From an uncultured Elusimicrobia bacterium (GTDB lineage: Bacteria; Elusimicrobiota; Elusimicrobia; UBA1565; UBA9628): a stretch of DNA of 64,000 nt. Location: contig CAIKVT010000058.1 of the NCBI GenBank assembly GCA_903830945.1, positions 75,487-139,486 on the forward strand, given 5' to 3'. The translations under genes were made by a program, and so were the position numbers. The notes beneath the pieces are model-generated. The model was not told where the DNA came from and searched no databases. It was given only the letters and a program-made list of their open reading frames with translations. This document shows, piece by piece, positions 5,685 to 42,650 of the stretch (positions within the stretch are counted from its first letter, which is position 1; each line of letters starts with the position of its first letter).

Positions 5685-5710
5685 GATAAGCCCGCTTCGG
5701 GCTCGCCGCC
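5673..5710. repeat. 38-bp direct repeat, copy 1 (GCTTGtAGGTAGGATAAGCCCGCTTCGGGCTCGCCGCC); overlaps the last 4 codons and stop of the MNT gene
   Basis: 37 of 38 identical to 9757-9794. Contains the small hairpin GCCCG-CTT-CGGGC. Both copies read ...ACR-stop in frame. Confidence 0.7.
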
Positions 5711-5925
5711 CTTGCCGAAGCCGCCCAGGATCTTCAATTCCTCAATGCGCACAGGCTCCCTCTTCCGCTGCCAGGGGCCCGCAGTCGGTAGGATACAATA
5801 GAAAACCGCCTTCGAGGCGGCCGAGTTCCGGCTCTAGGCAACGGCCAGCCTAGGCGGCTGGTAGGTCATCGTCGCCGGGAGGATTGGTAGACAGATTGGG
5901 TGAAGACGCGACGCTGGGGAGGAGC

Positions 5926-32123: not shown

Positions 32124-32956
32124 TTGGACCCTTCTCGCTTCAATTGAGCTAGGGTGGCATGGGCCCGCAGGGCACAGGCGCGGTCGTCCAGTTTGTCGCA
32201 GACCCGCGCGAGTATGCGGTAGAGGTCCGCGTAGGAAGGGGACTGGCTCACGGCAGTGCGCAGCAGAGCCTGGGCGCGGGCGAACTGTCCCATCGCCTCG
32301 GCCAGCTGAGCTCCGGCCAAGAGCGCATCGACGTTTTTGGGATGGGCCTTGAGCACTTCATCTACGAGGCGCTGAGCCTGCGCGCGATCGCCTTCCTCGC
32401 GCAGGATGCGCGCCAGCCCCAGTTTGGCGTCGCTGTAGTCGGGAGTGGTCCTTAGGATGGAGGAATAGAGTGTTTTGGCTTCCTGGCTTTGGCCGGCCTG
32501 TTCCAAGGGCAGGGCCAGGAATAAGGCCAAGTCAGGTTGGGAAGGGTCAAGTGCCAGGCAGCGGCGGTGGGCGGCTATGGCTTGGTCGGTCCGGCCTAGT
32601 TTCTCGTAGGCTTGGCCTAACTGGGGACAGGCGTCCGTGGGCGTGGGTGTGACCGTGATGAAGAGTTCCCAGGAGGCCGCTTCCTTTGGAAAATCATTGA
32701 GCTGGGCATAAGCTCGGGCTTGGGCGGATAGGTATATAGGATTGTTCGGAGCGCCGCGTAGGAGCTTTTGGACGAGTCCCAGGGTTCGTGCGGGTTCGCC
32801 CTCGTCGCTGGCCTCCTGGACCTGGGCCCAGAGTGCTTTGGCTTTTTCCGGGGATAGGCGTGCGGGCCGGTCGCCGGTCGCGCTGCCAGCGGTCCAGAAG
32901 AGAACCGCGGCCATGAGGATCCTCCCTGCGAGCGGCTGCAGGGCCCGAGCATCCAT
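32120..32956 (-). CDS. secreted TPR-repeat protein
   Basis: Start set at ATG 32956 (MDARALQPLAGRILMAAVLFWTAGSATG, signal-like). At least 5 TPR-like units. The track N-terminal extension lies inside the upstream gene and is rejected. Confidence 0.6.
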   Translation of the reverse strand: MDARALQPLAGRILMAAVLFWTAGSATGDRPARLSPEKAKALWAQVQEASDEGEPARTLGLVQKLLRGAPNNPIYLSAQARAYAQLNDFPKEAASWELFITVTPTPTDACPQLGQAYEKLGRTDQAIAAHRRCLALDPSQPDLALFLALPLEQAGQSQEAKTLYSSILRTTPDYSDAKLGLARILREEGDRAQAQRLVDEVLKAHPKNVDALLAGAQLAEAMGQFARAQALLRTAVSQSPSYADLYRILARVCDKLDDRACALRAHATLAQLKREGSK

Positions 32957-34848
32957 CAGAAGTTGTAGCGGGCCTGGAGGCCGAGTGAGTAGGACTGGTC
33001 GCGCACCGTTGTCGTGGACACTCGCCCCAGGGCCTTGAGCGCGAGGTTCTCCCGTTGGTACCATTCTAGCTCGCCTATATAGGCGTTGCCCTCGTAGTGG
33101 CTCCGGATCGCATCCCAGATGAAGCCGTGTTCGTAGCCCACCATGCTCCAGAGCCCACCGAAGCGTCGGGGGTGGATTCCTTCCCCGCCCCGGCAGCCCC
33201 AACAGCAGGGGCAGGCCTGGTTCCAACCGTGTCGCCAGTAGGCTCCCATCCAATGGTCTTGCTCGCTGGTTGATAGGTAGTTGCCTGCCGGCAGCAGGTA
33301 TTGGAGCGTGGAGAGCCGATAGCTGCCGGAGAATTCCTTGCACCAGGGCAGCCAGCCCGTGGCTTCGGCGTTGAAATCATCGGTGTGGTTGGCATCGGTG
33401 AAGAAGGTCCGGCCGTAAGAGAGGGAGAGGAGGTACTTGTCTTCTTGGAGCCGGCGCGCCATGATGCTGATGCGGTCCATGTCGACATAGCCCAGGCGGT
33501 TATCCGGGGTGGCTCCGTAGAACTCCTGGGGACTGCGCGAATAGCGCGCCTGGAGAAGGTTGTTGCCTGATTCTTTCGTGGCTAGGAGCGACCAGGTCTT
33601 GTATGTCGTGTGCTCGGAGTAGTTGTTGAGTCCGGCGCGACCTAGCAGGCCTAAGCCGAGGATGTAGGTCTCGAATTCGCCCTGCATGGAATCCTCGCGC
33701 AGCAGGGCTAAGTACGTGCTGCTTCCTGCGCCGCGCAAGTATGTCGGGGACCGGGTCAAGGTGAGTCGGGCGTTTCCTGCCTGGGTGTGCCACTCCCCAT
33801 AGAGTCGCGCCCGGGAGAACTGGGTGCGGCCCAAGCCCGCGCCGTGGATGTCATTGAGCAGGGATTGGCCGTACTCGCCCTCGAGTCTCACATTGCGCGT
33901 GGGGTCGGTCTCCATGCCGAGGGAATAGCGCTGGTCGAGAATGTTGTAATACGTGAAGCCTTGTGTGTCGTTGCGCTGCGCCTCCTGTCCGTATTCGGCG
34001 CCTCCGATGAAAGCAAGCTTGGCTGAGGACCGGTAGCGGGCCCGCAGCCCGCCGGAACGGCCTTCGTAGATGATGCGCTGGGGGCTGGCCGTGTTGAGAC
34101 CTTCTTGAGAAAGAGACTTGTAGATGCGGCCGGTAGGGAATATCCCGCTGGACCAGGACCTTTTTGAATCATCGAGTCTGCGCCAAGCGGCCGGGTCGCA
34201 GGGATCCGCTTGCGTCATTCCCTCCAGGGCGACCTGGACGCCTGGGTTGTCTCGCAGTCCTTTCCGGGCGCGGGCCATGAGGCCTAGGATGTAGGCGCTG
34301 TGCGGGGACTGGGCATCCCATCTTTGGAGGTAGCCGAGGGCCTCCTGGTACTCATCCAGGGAGAGGCAGACCAAAGAGAGCCCCTCGAAGGCGCCGCCGC
34401 TCTTGGGATCGAGCTTCAGCATTTTAAGGAAAATGGTCTTGGCCTTGGTGAGGTCGTCGCGTTGGAGCGCGGCCATGCCTTCGTCGTAAGATGGCGCGGC
34501 GGGCGCGGGGGCGGCATTCCCTGTCGGTAAAAGGCCCTCGCGGGCGCGGGCCATGAGGCCGAGGATGTAAGCACTGTGCGGGGATTGGGCGTCCCATCGC
34601 TGGAGGTAGCCGAGGGCTTCCGCGTATTGCTCTAGGGAGAGGTAGACCGATGAGAGTCCTTCCAAGGCGCCGCGACTTTCGGGGTCGCGCTCCAGCAGTT
34701 TTAGGAAGATGGCTTTGGCCCCTTGGAGGTCGCCGTGTTGGAGCGTGGCTATGCCCTCCTCGTAAGATGGCGCGGCGGCCTCGGCCGGCGCGGCGCGCAA
34801 GGGGGCGGCGGCTAAGGAGGCCAGCAGGAGTAAGGAGGCGCCGGTCAT
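32956..34848 (-). CDS. outer-membrane exopolysaccharide export porin, PgaA/BcsC-like (N-terminal TPR region + C-terminal beta-barrel)
   Basis: Signal peptide. TPR units carrying an internal tandem duplication. C-terminal half rich in alternating amphipathic strands and ending ...LGLQARYNF (OMP C-terminal Phe). Confidence 0.6.
   Translation of the reverse strand: MTGASLLLLASLAAAPLRAAPAEAAAPSYEEGIATLQHGDLQGAKAIFLKLLERDPESRGALEGLSSVYLSLEQYAEALGYLQRWDAQSPHSAYILGLMARAREGLLPTGNAAPAPAAPSYDEGMAALQRDDLTKAKTIFLKMLKLDPKSGGAFEGLSLVCLSLDEYQEALGYLQRWDAQSPHSAYILGLMARARKGLRDNPGVQVALEGMTQADPCDPAAWRRLDDSKRSWSSGIFPTGRIYKSLSQEGLNTASPQRIIYEGRSGGLRARYRSSAKLAFIGGAEYGQEAQRNDTQGFTYYNILDQRYSLGMETDPTRNVRLEGEYGQSLLNDIHGAGLGRTQFSRARLYGEWHTQAGNARLTLTRSPTYLRGAGSSTYLALLREDSMQGEFETYILGLGLLGRAGLNNYSEHTTYKTWSLLATKESGNNLLQARYSRSPQEFYGATPDNRLGYVDMDRISIMARRLQEDKYLLSLSYGRTFFTDANHTDDFNAEATGWLPWCKEFSGSYRLSTLQYLLPAGNYLSTSEQDHWMGAYWRHGWNQACPCCWGCRGGEGIHPRRFGGLWSMVGYEHGFIWDAIRSHYEGNAYIGELEWYQRENLALKALGRVSTTTVRDQSYSLGLQARYNF
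34220..34775. repeat. intragenic tandem duplication (2 x 276 bp, about 85% identical) inside the PgaA-like gene
   Basis: Protein repeats APSYEEGIATLQHGDLQGAKAIFLKLLERDP... and APSYDEGMAALQRDDLTKAKTIFLKMLKLDP..., both ending ...GYLQRWDAQSPHSAYILGLMARAR. Nucleotide period 276 (e.g. 34286 vs 34562). Confidence 0.6.
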
Positions 34849-35231
34849 TTTCCTGCGGTGACCTTGGCGATGACGGCCCGAAGGTCCTTCGGGTCGAAGG
34901 GCTTCTCGAAGAAGACCGCCACCGAGGGGATGGCCTCGAAGAGGTGGCGCATGTCGCCTTTGGCCGTGACGACGACGATGGGCAAGGCCGCGGTGCGCGG
35001 GCAGTTCCGGATGGCGAGGGCCGCAGTATAGCCATCCATGATGGGCATCATCACATCCAGGATCATGAGGTCGGGCAGGACCAAGGCCTCGTCCGAGGGA
35101 TCGACACCCAACACGCGCAGGGCTTCTTGGCCGTTGCCGGCGGAGGAAACGTTATGCCCGGATTTTTCCAGGATGAAGCGCATCAGGGCGACGATGTGTT
35201 CTTCGTCGTCGACGATGAGTATTTTTGCCAT
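34845..35231 (-). CDS. stand-alone response-regulator receiver (CheY-like) protein
   Basis: 128 aa. MAKILIVDDEE...DLMILDVMMP...VVVTAK...EKPF receiver motifs. Confidence 0.8.
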   Translation of the reverse strand: MAKILIVDDEEHIVALMRFILEKSGHNVSSAGNGQEALRVLGVDPSDEALVLPDLMILDVMMPIMDGYTAALAIRNCPRTAALPIVVVTAKGDMRHLFEAIPSVAVFFEKPFDPKDLRAVIAKVTAGK

Positions 35232-35233
35232 GA

Positions 35234-35248
35234 GATATAATTTATATC
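35234..35248. promoter_or_regulatory. 15-bp AT-rich palindrome GATATAA-T-TTATATC inside the 33-bp divergent intergenic region
   Basis: Read directly. Contains a TATAAT-like hexamer. Sits between the receiver gene (minus strand) and the YgjP-like gene (plus strand). Confidence 0.35.
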
Positions 35249-35264
35249 ATATTCATCGGCACTT

Positions 35265-35777
35265 ATGGGAATCGAGGGGGCGGTCATCCTTTTGAGGGAG
35301 GTCCGGGTATTCCTGTCCGGGCTGCGTCGAGAGCTCCCGGAAATTTTTCTTAGGCCGACGTTTTTTTCCGCAGTTCCGCCCGCGGTCCCTGTCCCGGTCC
35401 GGGTGCGTCGTGCCGGTCCGAAAGATGCCGTCCGTGAGCTCTTTGAGTCCCGCGTGAAGCACTGGAGCGTACTGATGGGGTTCGCGCCCAAACGCGTGTT
35501 CCTTAAGAATCAGAGGACGCTATGGGGCAGCTGTTCTACGCGCGGCAACCTTAACTTCAACCGGGCCCTGGCGGATGCTCCGGCCGAGATCGTGGACTAC
35601 GTGGTTATCCACGAGCTGGCCCATCTCAAGGAGATGAACCATTCCCGTCGCTTCTGGGCCGTGGTCGAAGCTTGGTGCCCGCAGCAGAAGCAGCGCCGTC
35701 TCTGGCTGCGCCGGAACGTCTCCTTGTTGAAGCATCTCGCCTCGTCGAGCAGGAGCAGGACCCCAGTCGTCTCATAA
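35265..35777 (+). CDS. YgjP/DUF45-family (M48-like HExxH) metal-dependent hydrolase, apparently N-terminally short
   Basis: WGSCS...NLNFN...VDYVVIHELAHL..HS..FW is the YgjP signature. Only 170 aa versus about 230 typical. Confidence 0.65.
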   Translation: MGIEGAVILLREVRVFLSGLRRELPEIFLRPTFFSAVPPAVPVPVRVRRAGPKDAVRELFESRVKHWSVLMGFAPKRVFLKNQRTLWGSCSTRGNLNFNRALADAPAEIVDYVVIHELAHLKEMNHSRRFWAVVEAWCPQQKQRRLWLRRNVSLLKHLASSSRSRTPVVS

Positions 35778-35791
35778 TTTTGTAGAACAGA

Positions 35792-37093
35792 GTGGCCATG
35801 CCGGGCTACACCAGCAACTTCACCTACCTCTCCTACATCATCGGCATCCCGGTGATCGACTCCGTTAGCGGTCGCGTGGTGGGACGCGTCGTCGACATGG
35901 CCGCGGGCCTGCGCGAGATGTATCCGCGCATCTCCGGAGCCATGATCGCGCGCGGCGGCTGGAACGGGCCGCGGGCCTATCTGCCGTGGAAGAGTGTCAA
36001 GTCTCTGGAACTGCGCAAGGCGCTGGTCGTCGAGGGCGCGGCCGAGGCTTTTGCTCAGGAGCCCAAGTTGGGCGACAACGAAATTCTTATTAAGGAAACC
36101 TTTTGGGATAAACAGATCGTGGACATTCATGGCTCCAAGGTCGTGCGGGTCAATGACCTGCACCTGCTGCGCGAGGACCCGAACTTGTGGGTCGTGCACA
36201 TGGACGTAGGCATCCCCGGCCTCTTGCGCCGGTTGGGCTGCTTTGGCACGTGCGACTGGCTCTTCAAGCTGGTTTTCTCTGTCGAGATTCGTGAGAAGTT
36301 CATCTCCTGGAAGTTCGTCCAGCCTATCACTTCCACCATCGGCAGCGACGCTTTGGCCCTGAAGGTGCACCACTCCAAGCTCTCAGAGCTCCATCCCGCG
36401 GATTTGGCTGAGATCTTCATCGACTTAGGCATTGACGAGCGGTTGCTTATCCTGCAGTCCTTGGACGATGCCACGGCCGCGCAAGCCTTCCAGGAGATGC
36501 CCCTGCCCGCGCGCGTGCAGATGGCTGAGACCATCCCGGAGGCGCGCTTGGCGGGCCTGGTCGATGGCATGGCCATGGATGAGGTCGTGGACCTCGTGGC
36601 ACAGCTTCCCAAGAAGAAGAAGGGCGCTCTTTTGCGCCGTCTGCCTCAGGATAAGGTCTTGCAAGTGATCAGTCTGCTGGAGGTCTCCCGGCGCGTGGCC
36701 GGCAGCATCATGAACACGACGTTCCTTTCCGTGAGGCGCGATGCCACCGCGACTCAGGTCCTAGATAAGGTCAAGGCCGAGGCTAAGCGCGTGGAGTCGA
36801 TCTATCATACCTACGTGGTCGATGAGAACGACGAGCTGGTGGGCGTGGTCACCTTGCGCCAGTTGCTGACCGCTCCCGGGGAGGCGCCGGTGGCGGGGTT
36901 CATGCGCAAGCGCGTGGTCCGGGTCAAGGTGGACACCAATATCAAGGACGTGGCGGATATCTTCCTGAAGTACGACTTCACAGTCCTGCCGGTTGTGGAC
37001 CGACGCAGCCGTGTCCAGGGCACTATCACCATGAAGGACGCGGTGGAAGCCGTGTTCCGGCAGGTGCGTAGCGAAGCGGAGACGGTGAAATGA
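35792..37093 (+). CDS. soluble MgtE-N domain + tandem CBS-domain protein (MgtE cytoplasmic module without the TM domain), N-terminal PRC-barrel-like region
   Basis: MgtE_N-like helical region (LAEIFIDLGIDERL...DEVVDLVAQLP). Two CBS motifs (TFLSVRRDAT..., DELVGVVTLRQLL / FTVLPVVD). No hydrophobic helices. GTG 35792 or ATG 35798 start. Confidence 0.7.
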   Translation: MAMPGYTSNFTYLSYIIGIPVIDSVSGRVVGRVVDMAAGLREMYPRISGAMIARGGWNGPRAYLPWKSVKSLELRKALVVEGAAEAFAQEPKLGDNEILIKETFWDKQIVDIHGSKVVRVNDLHLLREDPNLWVVHMDVGIPGLLRRLGCFGTCDWLFKLVFSVEIREKFISWKFVQPITSTIGSDALALKVHHSKLSELHPADLAEIFIDLGIDERLLILQSLDDATAAQAFQEMPLPARVQMAETIPEARLAGLVDGMAMDEVVDLVAQLPKKKKGALLRRLPQDKVLQVISLLEVSRRVAGSIMNTTFLSVRRDATATQVLDKVKAEAKRVESIYHTYVVDENDELVGVVTLRQLLTAPGEAPVAGFMRKRVVRVKVDTNIKDVADIFLKYDFTVLPVVDRRSRVQGTITMKDAVEAVFRQVRSEAETVK

Positions 37094-38394
37094 GCGAAGC
37101 CGCGACGGCCGGCTTGTCAAAGGGCTTCTTCGAGAGGCTCAAGGAGCGTCCTGCCCTGCGTAACTTTTTCATCTTCCTGAGCATACTCGGCCCGGGGATC
37201 ATCACGGGCAGCGTGGACAACGACGCGGGCGGCATCACCACCTATTCCGTAGCCGGCGCCTTGTACGGCTACAACCTGCTCTGGACCCTTATTCCATCAT
37301 TTGTGGCCCTGGCCGTGGTCCAGGAGATGAACGCGCGCATGGGCATTGTGACGGGTAAGGGTCTGGCGGACCTCATCCGCGAGAACTTCGGGGTCAAGAT
37401 CACTTTCTTCATCTTCGTGGGCCTGTTGATCGCCGACATCGGAAATACGGCCACCGAGTTCGCGGGCGTGGCCGGCAGCCTGAGCATATTCGGCGTGAGC
37501 AAGTACCTTTCCGTCCCCTTGGCCGCGGTGGGGGTCTGGATATTGGTGGTCAAGGGCGACTATAAGATCGCGGAGCGTATCTTCCTGGTCTTCAGCGTGT
37601 GCCTCTTTTCCTATATCATTTCCGCTGTGCTGGCCAAGCCGGACTGGCATGCGGTGGGGAAGGGTTTCGTGCGTCCGGAGATGCATTTTGACAGTGACTA
37701 CCTGAGTATGGTCCTCGGCCTCATCGGCACCACCATTGCGCCCTGGATGCAGTTCTACATGCAGTCTTCGGTGATTGAAAAGCGTCTGAAGATCGACGAG
37801 TATCGGTTTGTGATCTGGGACGTGCTGCTGGGTTGCGTGGCGACCGTGGTGGTGGCCTTCTTCATCATCGTGGCCTGCGCATCCACCTTGCATGTCAACG
37901 GTGTGGTTATTAAGGAGGCCGCGGACGCGGCCATGTCGCTTAAGCCCTTCGCCGGGCCTTTCGCCTCGGAACTCTTTGCCTTCGGGCTTTTCGTGGCCTC
38001 GGTCTTTTCGGCCACCATCCTGCCCCTGGCTACGGCTTTCTATGTCTGTGAGGCCTTTGGCTTCGAGGCCGGCATCAATAAGAAGATCGATGAGGCTCCA
38101 CAGTTCTATGCCCTTTTCACCTTCATCATGGCCGTGGCCGTGGGCATCATCCTCCTACCCGGGGCGCCTCTTATCGCCATTACCATCTGGACCCAGGTCA
38201 TCAACGCGATGCTCCTGCCCGTGGTTCTCATTTCCATGATCCTTATGGTTAACGACCGCAAGATCATGGGCGAGTATGTGAATAATCGTTTCCAGAACGT
38301 GGTGGGCTGGGCCACCACCGCGACACTCATCGTGCTGACCGGTTTACTGCTCGTCCAACCGGTGGTTCCCTTGTTTCGGAAGCTCTTTGGATAG
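37090..38394 (+). CDS. NRAMP/SLC11-family divalent cation transporter with non-canonical metal-site residues (NRMT-like)
   Basis: 11-12 TM helices. TM1 GPGIITGSVDNDAGG where canonical NRAMP has DPGN. TM6 TIAPWMQFYMQS where canonical has AxMPHN. ATGA overlap with the upstream gene. Confidence 0.8.
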   Translation: MSEAATAGLSKGFFERLKERPALRNFFIFLSILGPGIITGSVDNDAGGITTYSVAGALYGYNLLWTLIPSFVALAVVQEMNARMGIVTGKGLADLIRENFGVKITFFIFVGLLIADIGNTATEFAGVAGSLSIFGVSKYLSVPLAAVGVWILVVKGDYKIAERIFLVFSVCLFSYIISAVLAKPDWHAVGKGFVRPEMHFDSDYLSMVLGLIGTTIAPWMQFYMQSSVIEKRLKIDEYRFVIWDVLLGCVATVVVAFFIIVACASTLHVNGVVIKEAADAAMSLKPFAGPFASELFAFGLFVASVFSATILPLATAFYVCEAFGFEAGINKKIDEAPQFYALFTFIMAVAVGIILLPGAPLIAITIWTQVINAMLLPVVLISMILMVNDRKIMGEYVNNRFQNVVGWATTATLIVLTGLLLVQPVVPLFRKLFG

Positions 38395-38458: not shown

Positions 38459-41056
38459 CTAGTTCGCGCTGGCAGGACCCAGCCGGCCTTGGGGCTCAGG
38501 AAACGGCATAGCCATTTCAAGGCCTTCGGTCCAGGCTGTTCGCATGAGGGCTAGAGTCTGCTCCGGGCTGCGCTGCGGATTGAAGTAGAGGAGGCCCAGA
38601 GCGCTGTGCAGTCCCCAGGGATTCTGCAACATGATCCCCACTCCGATATTGACCGCATTGCGGTATGTCATGGGGCGAAGGGTCCGGTCTTGGCTTAACT
38701 GAGTTTCGTACCAGTTCAAGAACGCAATGAATTGTGCGATGTGTTCCTTAATCGGCTCCCCGGTTATGGCCCGCGTGCTCTTGCTGGGCAGGGCCGCGAT
38801 CTCCGACAAGACGGATTCGACCAGCGTGTAGTCGCGCTTGTTGAGGGCATCGATCATCTTCGCGGCGTAGCTCAGCATGCCGTCATCCTGCATCAGGTGG
38901 TGCGTGAAATGGCCCAGCCAGGCAGCCACTACGGCATGGTCGAGATCCACGGCATATTCCGGCTCGGCTTTGACGACTTCTTTGATACTGTCCTCGAATT
39001 CCTTGGCCAGCCGGGAATCGGGAAGCAGACGGTACAGGTCTTGCCTTTCCAGGCTTTGGAAGTGGGCGCTGTTGTTGAAGCTGCCTGTGAAGACGTATGT
39101 CCACCTTTGCATGGTTCCGGTTTCCGGATCTTTTTCTAGGACCTTGAAAATATTGGTCTTGTCATGCCACAGGTGGATGCCGCTTGGCACGCCATCCGGA
39201 TCCACGCTGGACGTCCCGGACAGAAGGCGGATATAGCCGAAGAGCTTCATCATCGGTCGGAATTCGGAGGCGAAGGGGAAGAAGTCCATGCCATGCGGAG
39301 GCTGGATCAGAAAGCCCGCCAAAGCGGCCGCCAAGCCGTAGCCATTCGGAGAAATGAATTGCTGGTCGAAGATCCCGTAGATCGTGAGGCGTTTTTGGAA
39401 GTCATCGGGGTAGAAATCCTTTAGGGCCTTGAGATAATTACGCAGAGCGTCCACCTCGGGCCGATAGGTGAGGACAAAATCGCTGAAATCGATTTCGGTG
39501 ATTTCAAATTCGGGCCGGATGTCTGCGGTCGGATCCTTGGCCCTGCGGGCCTTGGCGTCGGTGAGGGCTTGGGTGGCCCGGTCAATCATGATCGTCTTGC
39601 GGCTGTTGGGATTCTGCTTGCCGTTGGTGTGGGCGATTTCCCAGAATTCGCCGGTCTTGAAATTGAGACGTTGAGGGATATTGAGGGATGCGGGCAGACC
39701 TTTGGCGGAAAGCCGTTGGTCGTAAGCGTGGATCTCGATCATCGCCTGATCCAGAACGATCTGGTTTGCCGTCAAGTCTCTGGAGCGCATTTCTCGATTG
39801 AAGCGTCCTCCGAAATCAGGCAAGGGGCCTTGAGTCGTGGCTTCGATGGCATTGAGATTCGCGGTCCCGTATTCGGAGAATTTATAGGCATGGCCTCTCG
39901 GTCCGGTGGCGCAGAAGCCTTTTTCATGCATCAAAGGATTCTCGCTGGAACCGTTGGCGTCGAAGATCGGCTCGCCGCTCAAGACCGTGAGCGGGCCTGC
40001 GCCGTAATGCAGCTTGAAGCCGAGGGTTTCGCGCAGGTACTGGAGAGCCCGGCCTGGTCCGTCATCCTTATAAACGGCGTGTTCGAAATCCGTGGTGGAC
40101 CTTTTGCCTTTGGCAAAAACGCCGGTCATGGCCGTGTTGAAATCCGTGATGATGGTGACTTTGATGCCGGCTTGGACGAGCCTTTTGATCGCTTGGATAA
40201 CGGGGGCATGGCCGGGCGGGGGGGCGTTATCACCGATCTCGTAGTATTTCAAGATGAAGTGCTTCTCCGAATCGGGCATGCCGGCAAAGGCGATGTATTC
40301 GTCGATGCCTTGGGCGACCATCCCCTCGATACTGACCCCGATATGGCCCGGATAAGAATGTGACGCGTGCATCTTGATGGCGGCGTCCATGCTGGGCAGG
40401 GACGAATCTATTTCGTGGGGAGTGGGAATCGGCCTGGTGGGGTCGATCTCTTTCCGCGAGGGAGTCAAGATCGGATTGCCGGCATGGATCCTGGCCGCAT
40501 GCCCCTCATCCAGGGCGTTTGCGGGCACAGTCTCATTTCTGCCAGACCATTGATAATCAAAGCTGCGTTGCGCAAAATCTTTATCTCCCCGCAGGTCGCC
40601 GGCTGCGGGTTTCGGATCCGGTAGGTTTTGGGCAAGACGTTGCAAAACGGTGCGGCCTGGGTTCGCCCGATGCGGATTAATAAAGGAAGTTGCAGGGGAC
40701 GCTTCGAGAGCGGCGGAGTCTGAGGTGAGGGGGGCGGACATGACCGGGGTAGGCTCCGGACTCCGCGAGGTGATGTTTGAAACGTTAGGCTGGATCAGAG
40801 AGGCCGGCATCGGTTCCAGAGCAGCCGCGGTCAGGACGGACGGGGCTTGTATCCTGGGGGTCAGCTGTGGGCTTTGCGAGGCGAGGTTGAAAACGCTAGG
40901 TTGGATCAAAGAGGCGGGCTGCAGCCCGAGTGGAGCGGCGGTCAAGCCTGGCGCAACGGCCTGAACGTGGGATGAAGCCGTAATGGGAGCGACTTGGATG
41001 CTGGCCGTCCAGCCTATGTCCAAGAAGGCCGCTAGAAGTAATATCAGGGTGTTCAT
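38459..41056 (-). CDS. large secreted protein with two PLD-like HKD-type motifs and N-terminal Pro/Ala/Ser-rich low-complexity region
   Basis: Signal peptide (MNTLILLLAAFLDIGWTAS; ATG 41056 preferred over the track GTG 41080). LMHEKGFCATGPRGHAYKFSEYGTANLN and LWHDKTNIF...TGSFNNS resemble HxK...GSxN. Confidence 0.5.
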   Translation of the reverse strand: MNTLILLLAAFLDIGWTASIQVAPITASSHVQAVAPGLTAAPLGLQPASLIQPSVFNLASQSPQLTPRIQAPSVLTAAALEPMPASLIQPNVSNITSRSPEPTPVMSAPLTSDSAALEASPATSFINPHRANPGRTVLQRLAQNLPDPKPAAGDLRGDKDFAQRSFDYQWSGRNETVPANALDEGHAARIHAGNPILTPSRKEIDPTRPIPTPHEIDSSLPSMDAAIKMHASHSYPGHIGVSIEGMVAQGIDEYIAFAGMPDSEKHFILKYYEIGDNAPPPGHAPVIQAIKRLVQAGIKVTIITDFNTAMTGVFAKGKRSTTDFEHAVYKDDGPGRALQYLRETLGFKLHYGAGPLTVLSGEPIFDANGSSENPLMHEKGFCATGPRGHAYKFSEYGTANLNAIEATTQGPLPDFGGRFNREMRSRDLTANQIVLDQAMIEIHAYDQRLSAKGLPASLNIPQRLNFKTGEFWEIAHTNGKQNPNSRKTIMIDRATQALTDAKARRAKDPTADIRPEFEITEIDFSDFVLTYRPEVDALRNYLKALKDFYPDDFQKRLTIYGIFDQQFISPNGYGLAAALAGFLIQPPHGMDFFPFASEFRPMMKLFGYIRLLSGTSSVDPDGVPSGIHLWHDKTNIFKVLEKDPETGTMQRWTYVFTGSFNNSAHFQSLERQDLYRLLPDSRLAKEFEDSIKEVVKAEPEYAVDLDHAVVAAWLGHFTHHLMQDDGMLSYAAKMIDALNKRDYTLVESVLSEIAALPSKSTRAITGEPIKEHIAQFIAFLNWYETQLSQDRTLRPMTYRNAVNIGVGIMLQNPWGLHSALGLLYFNPQRSPEQTLALMRTAWTEGLEMAMPFPEPQGRLGPASAN

Positions 41057-41279
41057 CTTCTTTGAGGATATCACAGGCACTGTAGAATCGTCAGCGGCGG
41101 AAGGCCTAGTCGGCTGAGGTTATGCGGCCTATGTGCCCCTAGGCTTTAGGGCCTAAAGCGGCAGAGCCCGGGAGGCTGGGAACGATAGGTCTAAAGATTC
41201 GTCGGTCTGGGGCTGCGGACCCATGCGGGCGCAGGATGACCCTGATATCATAGAACCAGTCCCGCAGAAGGGCTAAATA

Positions 41280-42650
41280 ATGTTTGAAATGATATCCCGC
41301 CCTAAGAGCGCTTCTTTCATAATCGGATCGGCTTGCTTCTTTGGGGTCTCTGGCTATTGCGCGGGAGCAACCATTTCTACAGTCTTGCCTGCTGCTTGCG
41401 AAGCCGCAATACGAGTCCCCGGTCCGATGGTCGGCGCGGCTGTGGAGATGAGCCAAGCGCATCTTGGAGCCCTCAAGCCGGGAGATCTTTTTGTCCTTGT
41501 GCCCCGACCTCTTGCGAACTTGCCGGGAGCCCCAAGCGTTTCGGGAGTCTTCTCTGCTGCTCCCGCAGTCGCGGCACGAGCTCTGGGCCCTATCGCGCTG
41601 AGACCTCTTGCGAATGTGCCGGATGTCCCTGGTATCTTGGTCCAGTTTCCCGCTGCTCCCGTCCGGATAAGCGTCCCTTATAATGGAGAGAACAGATTGG
41701 CCGTTGCGGCTAGCCGCATCAGTTTAAATGCTGCGCGAACGATCGAGGCCTTGTTTCCGGGAAAGCCGTCGGTCGACTGGCCTGGCGCAGCCGCCTCCTT
41801 GCCGGCCGCCGCAGAGGGTGAAAACAGCGCGTTGGCCGGGAATTTTATTGGCAGCCTGCTTCGATACCACCGTATCGATGGCCGCAATGACGGTAGCGGA
41901 CTCTCCGGAGTTCAGTACCCTCCGCTGGCGGGCGTTTCGCCGGGAGACGACGCTGCTCTTAAGGCCGCAATCAATCAGATGGCTTCTTTTTTGGCTAGTC
42001 AGCCGGGGATCGAATATAAACCAGCCCCTTCCGATCCTCAGGCGCGCGAGGTTTTCCGCCAACAACTGGCCCAGCAGGCTGCCGAGGAGATCGAGCAGCA
42101 TGCGGCTGAGGAAATGAACGTATTGGTTGCGAGCCTGCCGGAAGGGCCGATGAAGATCTTTCTGCAAAAGGCCTTGCTGAAAGCCCAGCCGGAATTCTGG
42201 CGCGCTCCGTCAAGCTCAACAGGCAGATTCCATCCTGCGGACGAGATTAATTATGGTGGCTTGCTGGTTCATTCCATACGCGTCGCTCTGGTCGGGAGGA
42301 TGCTGTCCGAATATTTCGGATTCGACCGTCCTGACCGCATGATGGCGGCGCTCCTTATCCACGATATCCAAAAAGGCGGGATCCCCTGGAGGCACACTAG
42401 CAAGCCAGGCGGCGCTCCGGATTCCGGATATGTCGCGGATCACGGCCCCGTCGCAGCCGAGTGGCTGAAAGGATTCAAAGATGAATGCGGTTTTGATTGC
42501 GAAGCGATCATCGACGATGTGGGCATCCACATGGCGCAATGGAACCAGCCTCGACCCACGCCGCCGCAGACACTGGAAGAGCAGATAGTTTCTTATGCGG
42601 ATTATCTGGCTTCACGGGATGAGATTTACGTGCGGTGGAGAAATCCATGA
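41280..42650 (+). CDS. HD-domain metal-dependent phosphohydrolase with N-terminal signal peptide and Pro/Ala-rich low-complexity region
   Basis: C-terminal HD core (LLVHSIRVALVG...LIHDIQK...YADYLASRD). N-terminus MFEMISRPKSASFIIGSACFFGVSGYCAG is signal-like. Confidence 0.6.
   Translation: MFEMISRPKSASFIIGSACFFGVSGYCAGATISTVLPAACEAAIRVPGPMVGAAVEMSQAHLGALKPGDLFVLVPRPLANLPGAPSVSGVFSAAPAVAARALGPIALRPLANVPDVPGILVQFPAAPVRISVPYNGENRLAVAASRISLNAARTIEALFPGKPSVDWPGAAASLPAAAEGENSALAGNFIGSLLRYHRIDGRNDGSGLSGVQYPPLAGVSPGDDAALKAAINQMASFLASQPGIEYKPAPSDPQAREVFRQQLAQQAAEEIEQHAAEEMNVLVASLPEGPMKIFLQKALLKAQPEFWRAPSSSTGRFHPADEINYGGLLVHSIRVALVGRMLSEYFGFDRPDRMMAALLIHDIQKGGIPWRHTSKPGGAPDSGYVADHGPVAAEWLKGFKDECGFDCEAIIDDVGIHMAQWNQPRPTPPQTLEEQIVSYADYLASRDEIYVRWRNP

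Follow-up and report, generated by a model that had tools for sequence, protein, structure and literature searches.

A predicted PRC-barrel/MgtE-type protein without a pore domain, encoded beside a probable NRMT-type transporter in an uncultured Elusimicrobia bacterium

Introduction

NRAMP-related magnesium transporters (NRMTs) are uncoupled uniporters and represent a fourth class of bacterial Mg2+ importer. They form an outgroup clade of the SLC11 family, characterized by uncoupled transport of Mg2+ (and Mn2+) and by the exclusion of Ca2+. Here we analyze two adjacent open reading frames (ORFs), one for a soluble MgtE-like protein (ORF A) and one for a probable NRMT-type transporter (ORF B), which are found in 64,000 nucleotides (nt) of DNA from an uncultured Elusimicrobia bacterium (GenBank assembly GCA_903830945.1, contig CAIKVT010000058.1, positions 75,487 to 139,486 of the forward strand). 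This whole stretch is referred to as the window, and coordinates of its features count from its first letter. NrmT was defined by Shin et al. (2014; PLoS Genet, PMC4072509), who reported that most NrmT genes adjoin a gene for a homologue of MgtE's N-terminal cytoplasmic domain and spoke of "mgtE-nramp operons" (their Fig. S5). As to the function of the MgtE fragment, the speculation of these authors was "cytoplasmic feedback regulation of transport" or, alternatively, a chaperone role (PMC4072509). They tested the pair ACP2976/ACP2977 of A. capsulatum, which is not preceded by an M-box, and found that the transporter fully rescued a Mn2+ defect and partially rescued a Mg2+ defect (PMC4072509).

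EleNRMT from Eggerthella lenta (PDB 7QIA, 7QIC, 7QJI and 7QJJ) was studied alone, and the paper describing it does not discuss a partner gene (PMC8806188). This protein carries Mg2+ and Mn2+ without H+ coupling; among the residues that were mutated and tested (D55, G58, T224 and Q379), alterations of D55 and Q379 led to a loss of transport, and the T224A substitution caused a selective loss of Mg2+ transport (PMC8806188). MgtE closes when Mg2+ binds at its sites Mg4 to Mg6 (PMC5882242), and its CBS domains bind ATP, thereby setting the Mg2+ sensitivity of the channel (PMC5529423). In the later literature searched, we found no follow-up to the 2014 work on the role of the NRMT partner, and a 2026 review of Mg2+ transporters does not mention NRMTs.

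The preliminary description of the window, made from the sequence alone, had taken the coupling of an MgtE-like gene to an NRAMP gene to be undescribed; it is already contained in the report by Shin et al. (PMC4072509), and the window locus is a further case of this operon type, in an Elusimicrobiota-like genome and free of an M-box. What is new here is the predicted tandem PRC-barrel of the partner protein, and the match of this protein to the whole cytoplasmic part of a class of PRC-barrel-containing MgtE channels.

Results

Organization of the gene pair

Inspection of the sequence bore out the layout given in the preliminary description, with two ORFs on the plus strand that overlap in an ATGA. 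The pair consists of the following elements.

35798..37093, plus strand: ORF A, soluble protein with the predicted order PRC-PRC-MgtE_N-CBS-CBS, 431 amino acids from the ATG (ORF list, Pfam)
37090..38394, plus strand: ORF B, probable NRMT-type SLC11/NRAMP transporter, 434 amino acids (Pfam Nramp, homology to EleNRMT)
37078..37093, plus strand: junction of ORF A and ORF B, GGAG and ATGA (sequence)

An alternative start of ORF A is a GTG at 35792, which yields a protein of 433 amino acids (35792..37093, plus strand); public gene calls place the start two codons further inside, at the ATG at 35798, and contain the identical 431-residue protein (P0001, 100% identity). At positions 37090-37093, the ATG of ORF B shares bases with the TGA of ORF A, and a Shine-Dalgarno-like GGAG (37078-37081) is situated inside the 3' end of ORF A, 8 nt before the ORF B ATG. 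This junction has the geometry that is usual for translational coupling.

The locus has the hallmark of the mgtE-nramp operons, a gene for an MgtE cytoplasmic-domain homologue beside nrmT on the same strand, and it resembles those of C. acetobutylicum (Ca_c0685) and A. capsulatum in gene order, strand, transporter clade and partner type. It differs from the C. acetobutylicum operon, whose partner is divided between two genes (PMC4072509). Like the A. capsulatum pair, the window pair possesses no M-box, since no Rfam family was detected at the gathering threshold in the whole window and no Rfam match at E<=1 was obtained for positions 35000-36000. An M-box or other riboswitch leader before ORF A is ruled out by these scans, and the gap of 14-20 nt to the preceding gene leaves no space for one. 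As the A. capsulatum pair illustrates, an M-box is not obligatory in this family. The closest named relative has 91% identity, and the window pair belongs to an Elusimicrobiota-like metagenome-assembled genome.

Metal site and identity of the transporter

The Pfam family Nramp (PF01566) spans the full length of ORF B (E 4.8e-98, profile positions 1-356 of 357). Among solved structures, EleNRMT (7QIA) was the best match (E 1.4e-109, HMMER), with DraNramp far behind (E ~1e-33), and residues 18-426 of ORF B align with residues 28-436 of EleNRMT without gaps, at an offset of 10. The HMMER alignment places two motifs in the unwound regions of transmembrane segments 1 and 6 (TM1 and TM6).

37216..37233, plus strand: motif DNDAGG of the TM1 unwound region, residues 43-48
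37729..37746, plus strand: motif TTIAPW of the TM6 unwound region

Residues 214-222 read TTIAPWMQF. When the columns are matched, D-A-G-G of ORF B corresponds to D-P-G-N of DraNramp, and T-T-I-A-P-W corresponds to A-T-V-M-P-H. D45 is the universal metal-site Asp and G48 stands in place of the canonical Asn; in TM6, the Thr critical for Mg2+ is T214, and the positions of the canonical Met and of the first TM6b His are taken by A217 and W219, respectively. The alignments to DraNramp and EleNRMT are thus in agreement with the earlier reading of DNDAGG and APWMQF as motifs that have lost the coordinating Asn and Met. The finding that would have spoken against this reading, a canonical DPGN/MPH site at another place in the protein, is excluded by the gapless alignment to EleNRMT, in which the motifs match column for column.

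ORF B is the same as EleNRMT at every site residue compared: D45, G48, E123, T214, A217, W219 and Q369 are identical to D55, G58, E133, T224, A227, W229 and Q379. The proton path of DraNramp (E124, D131, H232 and H237) is replaced by L113, T120, W219 and Q225; E134 of DraNramp is retained as E123, as it is in EleNRMT. The proton-coupling network is consequently lost at the TM6b histidines and at the TM3 positions, alike in ORF B and EleNRMT. The two transporters differ at the position of the second TM6b His, which is Asn in EleNRMT and Met (M224) in ORF B, neither of them proton-carrying. Together with the full-length SLC11/NRAMP (LeuT-type) fold, ORF B therefore combines the features of an NRMT, namely D-x-G-G in TM1, the Ala-to-Thr and Met-to-Ala exchanges in TM6, and the dismantled proton network.

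Taken together, these comparisons very probably identify ORF B as an NRMT-type Mg2+/Mn2+ transporter, the identity that had been proposed for it before. Because EleNRMT has 11 membrane segments, ORF B is predicted by homology to have 11 as well, rather than the 12 assumed in the preliminary description. Database names give little hint of this: NCBIfam NF037982 would label ORF B generically as "Nramp family divalent metal transporter", the partner is named "CBS domain-containing protein" or "magnesium transporter" in the sources, and the NF037982 label and the partner names both obscure the connection to Mg2+.

Domain architecture of the partner protein

The following domains were assigned to ORF A.

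35819..36031, plus strand: predicted first PRC-barrel, residues ~8-78 (ATG numbering); all-beta model with a predicted local distance difference test score (pLDDT) of ~90
36080..36325, plus strand: predicted second PRC-barrel (residues ~95-176), into which a helical hairpin is inserted; invariant columns, models and fold matches
36389..36682, plus strand: MgtE_N helical domain, residues 200-297 (GTG numbering); PF03448 and alignment to 2yvy
36701..37054, plus strand: CBS pair, residues ~304-421; Pfam CBS

Pfam recognized MgtE_N (PF03448, E 2.6e-18) and, in two stretches, CBS (E 8.7e-19). Neither the MgtE pore domain (PF01769) nor a hydrophobic or transmembrane-like segment was found in ORF A by Pfam and a sequence scan. 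The protein ends 11 residues past the CBS pair, and its short C-terminal helix corresponds to the stretch where the plug helix of MgtE begins. The mgtE profile TIGR00400 matched with 135 bits, below its cut-off of 232.75, and at positions 24-254 of 450 only. We considered and rejected the classification of ORF A as an MgtE channel (Transporter Classification 1.A.26) because the five-helix pore domain, with its pore Asp D432, is missing. The best sequence match of ORF A in the PDB is the cytosolic domain of T. thermophilus MgtE (E 4.5e-31, 31% identity), and the AlphaFold2 (AF2) model (pLDDT 79) was matched by Foldseek to MgtE structures at E ~1e-19. ORF A thus shares the fold of MgtE_N and the CBS pair with this channel (2YVY/2YVX/2ZY9), but lacks its pore domain and carries an additional predicted tandem PRC-barrel at the N-terminus. 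The preliminary description had correctly recognized MgtE_N and the CBS pair without a pore; the first ~190 residues were left unmentioned in it.

To the Pfam PRC family (PF05239), ORF A bears only a weak match (E 5e-4; 20.4 bits versus a gathering cut-off of 21.2). PF05239 is recorded for many ORF A homologues and reaches up to 42.9 bits in relatives that combine PRC and MgtE domains. The AF2 model of the N-terminal ~190 residues contains two beta-barrels (pLDDT 82, predicted template modelling score 0.75). Among its Foldseek matches, the tandem-PRC proteins CdpB1/B2 (8QZO, E 1.8e-5) came first, ahead of reaction-centre H subunits, 3HTR and RimM. These models indicate a tandem PRC-barrel fold for this part of ORF A. 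The archaeal proteins CdpB1/CdpB2, the best structural match (template modelling scores of 0.41-0.55), likewise possess two consecutive PRC-barrels; they differ from ORF A by their low identity (14-18%), their cell-division context and the absence of the extra helical hairpin present in the second barrel of ORF A. To judge by the models, the likeness is one of fold only.

Within the partner family, conservation is highest in the N-terminal part, with a peak in the second PRC (PRC2) block, and not in the MgtE part. Positions D104, Q106, V108, D109, G112, K114, V116, R117, N119, D120, L121, H122, L124, W131, H134, G138, G141, R145, W171, K172 and V174 are invariant. In the literature searched, we found no mention of a PRC-barrel in the NRMT partner, and no paper that joins the terms "PRC-barrel" and "MgtE".

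PRC-barrel-containing MgtE channels

A HMMER scan of the N-terminal 194 residues of ORF A against 1.84 billion representative proteins yielded 1013 matches. The majority of these are soluble proteins of ~420-445 amino acids with the architecture of ORF A. A separate class of 593-607 amino acids comprises PRC, MgtE_N, CBS and the MgtE pore domain (PF01769); such tandem-PRC MgtE channels of ~600 amino acids are P0171, P0180, P0207, P0225, P0240, P0241 and P0268, and one is encoded at locus L161 (334-2115). Their domain order, PRC-PRC-MgtE_N-CBS-CBS, is that of ORF A, but they extend further into the pore domain. Residues 10-414 of ORF A are collinear with P0171 (36% identity, E 3e-73), a match of longer coverage and higher identity than that to canonical MgtE. 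Because of this collinearity, ORF A is best described as a pore-less PRC-MgtE assembly; its sequence appears to correspond to the entire cytoplasmic part of such a channel. The relationship between the NRMT partner and the PRC-MgtE channels may be new.

We inspected one PRC-MgtE locus, that of P0171, where TrkA genes are present and no Nramp gene was found. The idea that the tandem PRC-barrel is an NRMT-specific docking module is weakened by the presence of the same tandem PRC on full-length MgtE channels. Since the assembly is covalently joined to MgtE pores in the ~600-residue proteins, it represents a transport-gating module in another context.

Metal-ligand and ATP sites of ORF A

The Mg2+ ligands of T. 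thermophilus MgtE (TtMgtE) were transferred to ORF A with the site definitions of PMC5882242 and a HMMER alignment that reproduces E59, D91, D95, D226, D247 and D250; conservation was counted over 50 family members.

Mg4: D91 and D247 of TtMgtE correspond to D263 and D416 of ORF A; invariant (50/50)
Mg6: D95 of TtMgtE corresponds to D267 of ORF A; invariant (50/50)
Mg5: D226 and D250 of TtMgtE correspond to D395 and E419 of ORF A; 84% each
Mg7: E59 of TtMgtE corresponds to Q231 of ORF A; variable

D263 and D267 are located in the MgtE_N domain, while D395, D416 and E419 belong to the CBS pair. ORF A hence retains the acidic ligands of Mg4, Mg5 and Mg6 and differs from MgtE at Mg7 and in the context of Mg1 to Mg3, which is altered or absent. 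E428 (Glu in 82% of the family) is found opposite D259 of the MgtE Mg3 site. The ATP motif of MgtE (Y170, R187, D188, N203 and F227) is partly retained, with F227 and R187 preserved as F396 and R356. Y170 is replaced by H339 in ORF A and is Tyr in 82% of the partner family; Q357 and R372 replace D188 and N203, and both of these replacements are family-conserved.

Conservation of the pairing

We fetched 80 genome loci via ORF B (68-79% identity) from Omnitrophota, Elusimicrobiota, Ignavibacteriota, Bacteroidota, Aminicenantes, Clostridia and others; three had too little flank to judge, which left 77. A same-strand homologue of ORF A was present at 70 of these 77 NRMT loci, directly upstream in 67 and directly downstream in three. 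Conversely, of 80 metagenome loci fetched via ORF A, 72 had a downstream flank of 600 nt or more, and all 72 carried a same-strand Nramp-family gene downstream, each with an NRMT-type site (TM1: DAGG in 68, DASG in two and EAGG in one; TM6: TT[IV][AT]P[WYF]). The partner is all but obligatorily linked to NRMT-type sites, and the pairing is far beyond chance. The pair is conserved in other genomes; its absence from all of them, which would have spoken against the earlier interpretation, is excluded. Most junctions in related loci are overlaps of -4 (ATGA) or gaps of +1 to +24 nt. The MgtE part was found in 70/70 partner genes and the PRC2 hidden Markov model in 69/70, the sole exception being cut by a contig end; the tandem PRC is a standard component of the partner architecture. 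The divergence of ORF A and ORF B homologues shows a significant but moderate correlation (r 0.56; Mantel 0 of 999; mirror-tree), which we do not count as evidence for an interaction because shared phylogeny and co-inheritance explain it.

The three loci with a downstream partner (L005, L010 and L011) stem from Aminicenantes; the order of the genes is reversed there, with the NRMT gene first, and the linkage is retained. Where no adjacent partner was found, the NRMT genes have a DEAD-box helicase, VTT/DedA, MarC, KdpA or BipA as neighbours; these are unrelated, and our search for a hidden divergent partner or an M-box at the seven loci was negative. An apparent fusion of the two genes in Desulfosporosinus (L061, an ORF of 839 amino acids) was dismissed, as a stop codon separates them.

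An M-box precedes the pair only in Clostridium and Desulfosporosinus loci (L061, L067); most pairs outside the Firmicutes, that of the window included, are without one. In Candidatus Clostridium eludens (L067), a NiCo riboswitch (RF02683) at 5696-5792 is situated just downstream of the M-box-controlled partner-NRMT pair, so that two metal riboswitches occur within one small region. In six Omnitrophota loci (L001, L015, L016, L018, L024 and L029), identity to ORF B is 73-79% for the transporters, but identity to ORF A is only 27-32% for the partners, compared with 52-57% at other loci whose transporters are just as similar. Because the Omnitrophota partners diverge while their transporters stay similar, the sequences suggest either two or more divergent partner subfamilies or an exchange of partners.

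Neighbouring genes

A gene for a YgjP-like metallopeptidase (35265..35777, plus strand) ends 14-20 nt before ORF A. Its Pfam match covers the C-terminal half of the profile only (positions 111-207 of 207), and it is for this reason a short form or a truncated gene. Given the narrow gap, the YgjP-like gene, ORF A and ORF B may be on one shared transcript; a weak sigma-70-like site is found at 35225-35253. A stand-alone response-regulator receiver protein of 128 amino acids (34845-35231, minus strand) is encoded divergently from this cluster, and an HD-domain protein of 456 amino acids with a long low-complexity N-terminus (41280-42650, plus strand) further downstream; neither has an evident link to the pair. 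The minus strand also encodes a TPR protein of 630 amino acids (32956-34848), which has an internal duplication of ~95 residues near its N-terminus, including the identical stretch EALGYLQRWDAQSPHSAYILGLMARAR, and whose C-terminal ~400 residues are without a Pfam match. Convergent with ORF B is an ORF of 873 amino acids (38459-41080, minus strand) that matched no Pfam family at E<=0.001; it begins with a signal-like segment and repeated ASLIQP.V.N..S.SP..TP motifs.

Discussion

The identity of both proteins, the residues of the metal site, the conservation of the ligands, the domain architecture and the synteny of the two genes are directly supported by the comparisons described above. As the overall best explanation of these data, to which we give an even chance, we propose a translationally coupled mgtE-nramp module in which ORF A would act in trans as a Mg2+-sensing brake on an uncoupled Mg2+/Mn2+ uniporter. 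The physical interaction of the two proteins, the direction of the regulation and the ion that is sensed are what we infer in this proposal. The metal site of ORF B would be wider and more polar than that of a canonical NRAMP transporter, owing to Gly in place of Asn in TM1 and to Thr in place of Ala and Ala in place of Met in TM6, and would take largely hydrated Mg2+ and also Mn2+. From the dismantled proton pathway, ORF B is expected to be a uniporter driven by the membrane potential, like EleNRMT. ORF A would form a dimer via its CBS pairs; rising cytosolic Mg2+ would be bound by it and cause its compaction, and the compact form would dock onto the cytoplasm-facing side of the NRMT and inhibit transport. 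The result would be negative feedback for an otherwise uncontrolled uniporter, as exerted by the cytosolic domain of MgtE on its pore in cis. A Mg2+-dependent negative regulation of ORF B by ORF A, claimed by analogy with MgtE, falls in our judgment a little short of an even chance. The M-boxes before the pair in Clostridium and Desulfosporosinus loci tie it to Mg2+.

NRAMP proteins are usually monomers and MgtE is an obligate dimer, which poses a problem for the geometry of docking. This and a number of further observations weigh against a Mg2+-sensing brake. In ORF A, the Mg7 ligand (E59) is lost, the pore domain to which Mg2 and Mg3 bridge in MgtE is missing, and the ribose/adenine ligands of the MgtE ATP site are replaced; the window contains no M-box (RF00380). 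NRMTs also function on their own: in vivo complementation is achieved by Ca_c0685 and Ca_c3329 (PMC4072509), EleNRMT is active alone in proteoliposomes (PMC8806188), and an adjacent partner is missing at 7/77 NRMT loci despite full flanks. The A. capsulatum transporter acted mainly as a Mn2+ importer, and co-expression of its partner gave no added rescue (PMC4072509). The latter test is not diagnostic for an inhibitor, however, because improved rescue was what it scored. The interaction of ORF A with ORF B and the regulation are, finally, predictions. The earlier proposal of a two-component Mg2+ uptake system accordingly stands as to the pairing of the genes; the term is overstated, since NRMTs transport without the partner and seven loci have none. 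Gating of an NRAMP-fold transporter by an MgtE-like sensor, likewise put forward before, is rendered plausible by the conserved ligands and the reciprocal synteny.

Instead of, or in addition to, Mg2+, ORF A might respond to a different signal when it regulates the NRMT, such as Mn2+, an adenine nucleotide bound by the CBS pair, or a ligand or partner of the PRC-barrels, and it might then also activate transport. We regard this alternative as unlikely, yet serious. Shin et al. themselves suggested a Mn2+-responsive partner, in line with the predominant Mn2+ import by the A. capsulatum transporter (PMC4072509). The binding of ATP by the CBS domains of MgtE (PMC5529423) and the retention of F396 and R356 in ORF A would fit a nucleotide signal, and the family-conserved Gln and Arg at the ribose/adenine positions suggest a ligand different from that of MgtE. 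Conservation in the partner peaks in the PRC2 block rather than in the MgtE part, and the scarcity of M-boxes among non-Firmicute pairs, that of the window too, points in the same direction. The acidic ligands of Mg4 and Mg6 are invariant, however, and those of Mg5 mostly retained; the metal site of ORF B is identical to that of the Mg2+-carrying EleNRMT, and the M-box control of the pair in Clostridia points to Mg2+.

Translational coupling and near-universal synteny would likewise be accounted for if ORF A were a structural subunit for folding, membrane targeting, stability or oligomerization of the NRMT, devoid of any signal-dependent control, and PRC-barrels do serve as adaptors between proteins or between protein and RNA in CdpB, the reaction-centre H subunit and RimM. 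Since NRMTs need no partner for expression and activity in heterologous hosts or liposomes, and partner-less orthologues with identical sites exist, we consider this improbable. Quite improbable, in our view, is the chaperone offered as an alternative by Shin et al. (PMC4072509), a cytosolic protein that would take Mg2+ or Mn2+ from the exit of the NRMT, buffer it and pass it on. Free cytosolic Mg2+ is millimolar, so that a chaperone is hard to justify; the homologous sites of MgtE are low-affinity regulatory sites (PMC5882242), and the same assembly occurs on MgtE pores, where it is concerned with gating. The many conserved acidic residues of ORF A and the near-stoichiometric synthesis implied by tight translational coupling would nevertheless suit such a function. 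Mere co-transcription of ORF A with a target elsewhere (another channel, or the ribosome or RNA via the PRC-barrels) is very improbable given the reciprocal linkage in 72/72 loci, which spans many phyla, is restricted to NRMT-type sites and persists through the inversion of gene order in Aminicenantes, even though RimM-type PRC-barrels bind ribosomal proteins, the mirror-tree correlation is moderate, and some loci combine a very similar ORF B with a very different ORF A.

The Mg2+-sensing brake can be extended to a more general, and in our estimation rather doubtful, proposal: PRC-PRC-MgtE_N-CBS2 could be a portable gating module that is independent of the pore, acting in cis on an MgtE channel and in trans on a LeuT-fold SLC11 carrier. 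If true, NRAMP-family transporters would have in ORF A their first known cytosolic gating subunit that acts in trans, one sensor would have been re-used across two unrelated membrane-transport folds, and the tandem PRC-barrel would add a second input or a docking function. The conserved partner may bear on how cells keep NRMTs from overloading the cytoplasm. With the full PRC-MgtE assembly, the Mg4-Mg6 ligands and the near-obligate linkage, the comparative results presented here make the question of the partner testable.

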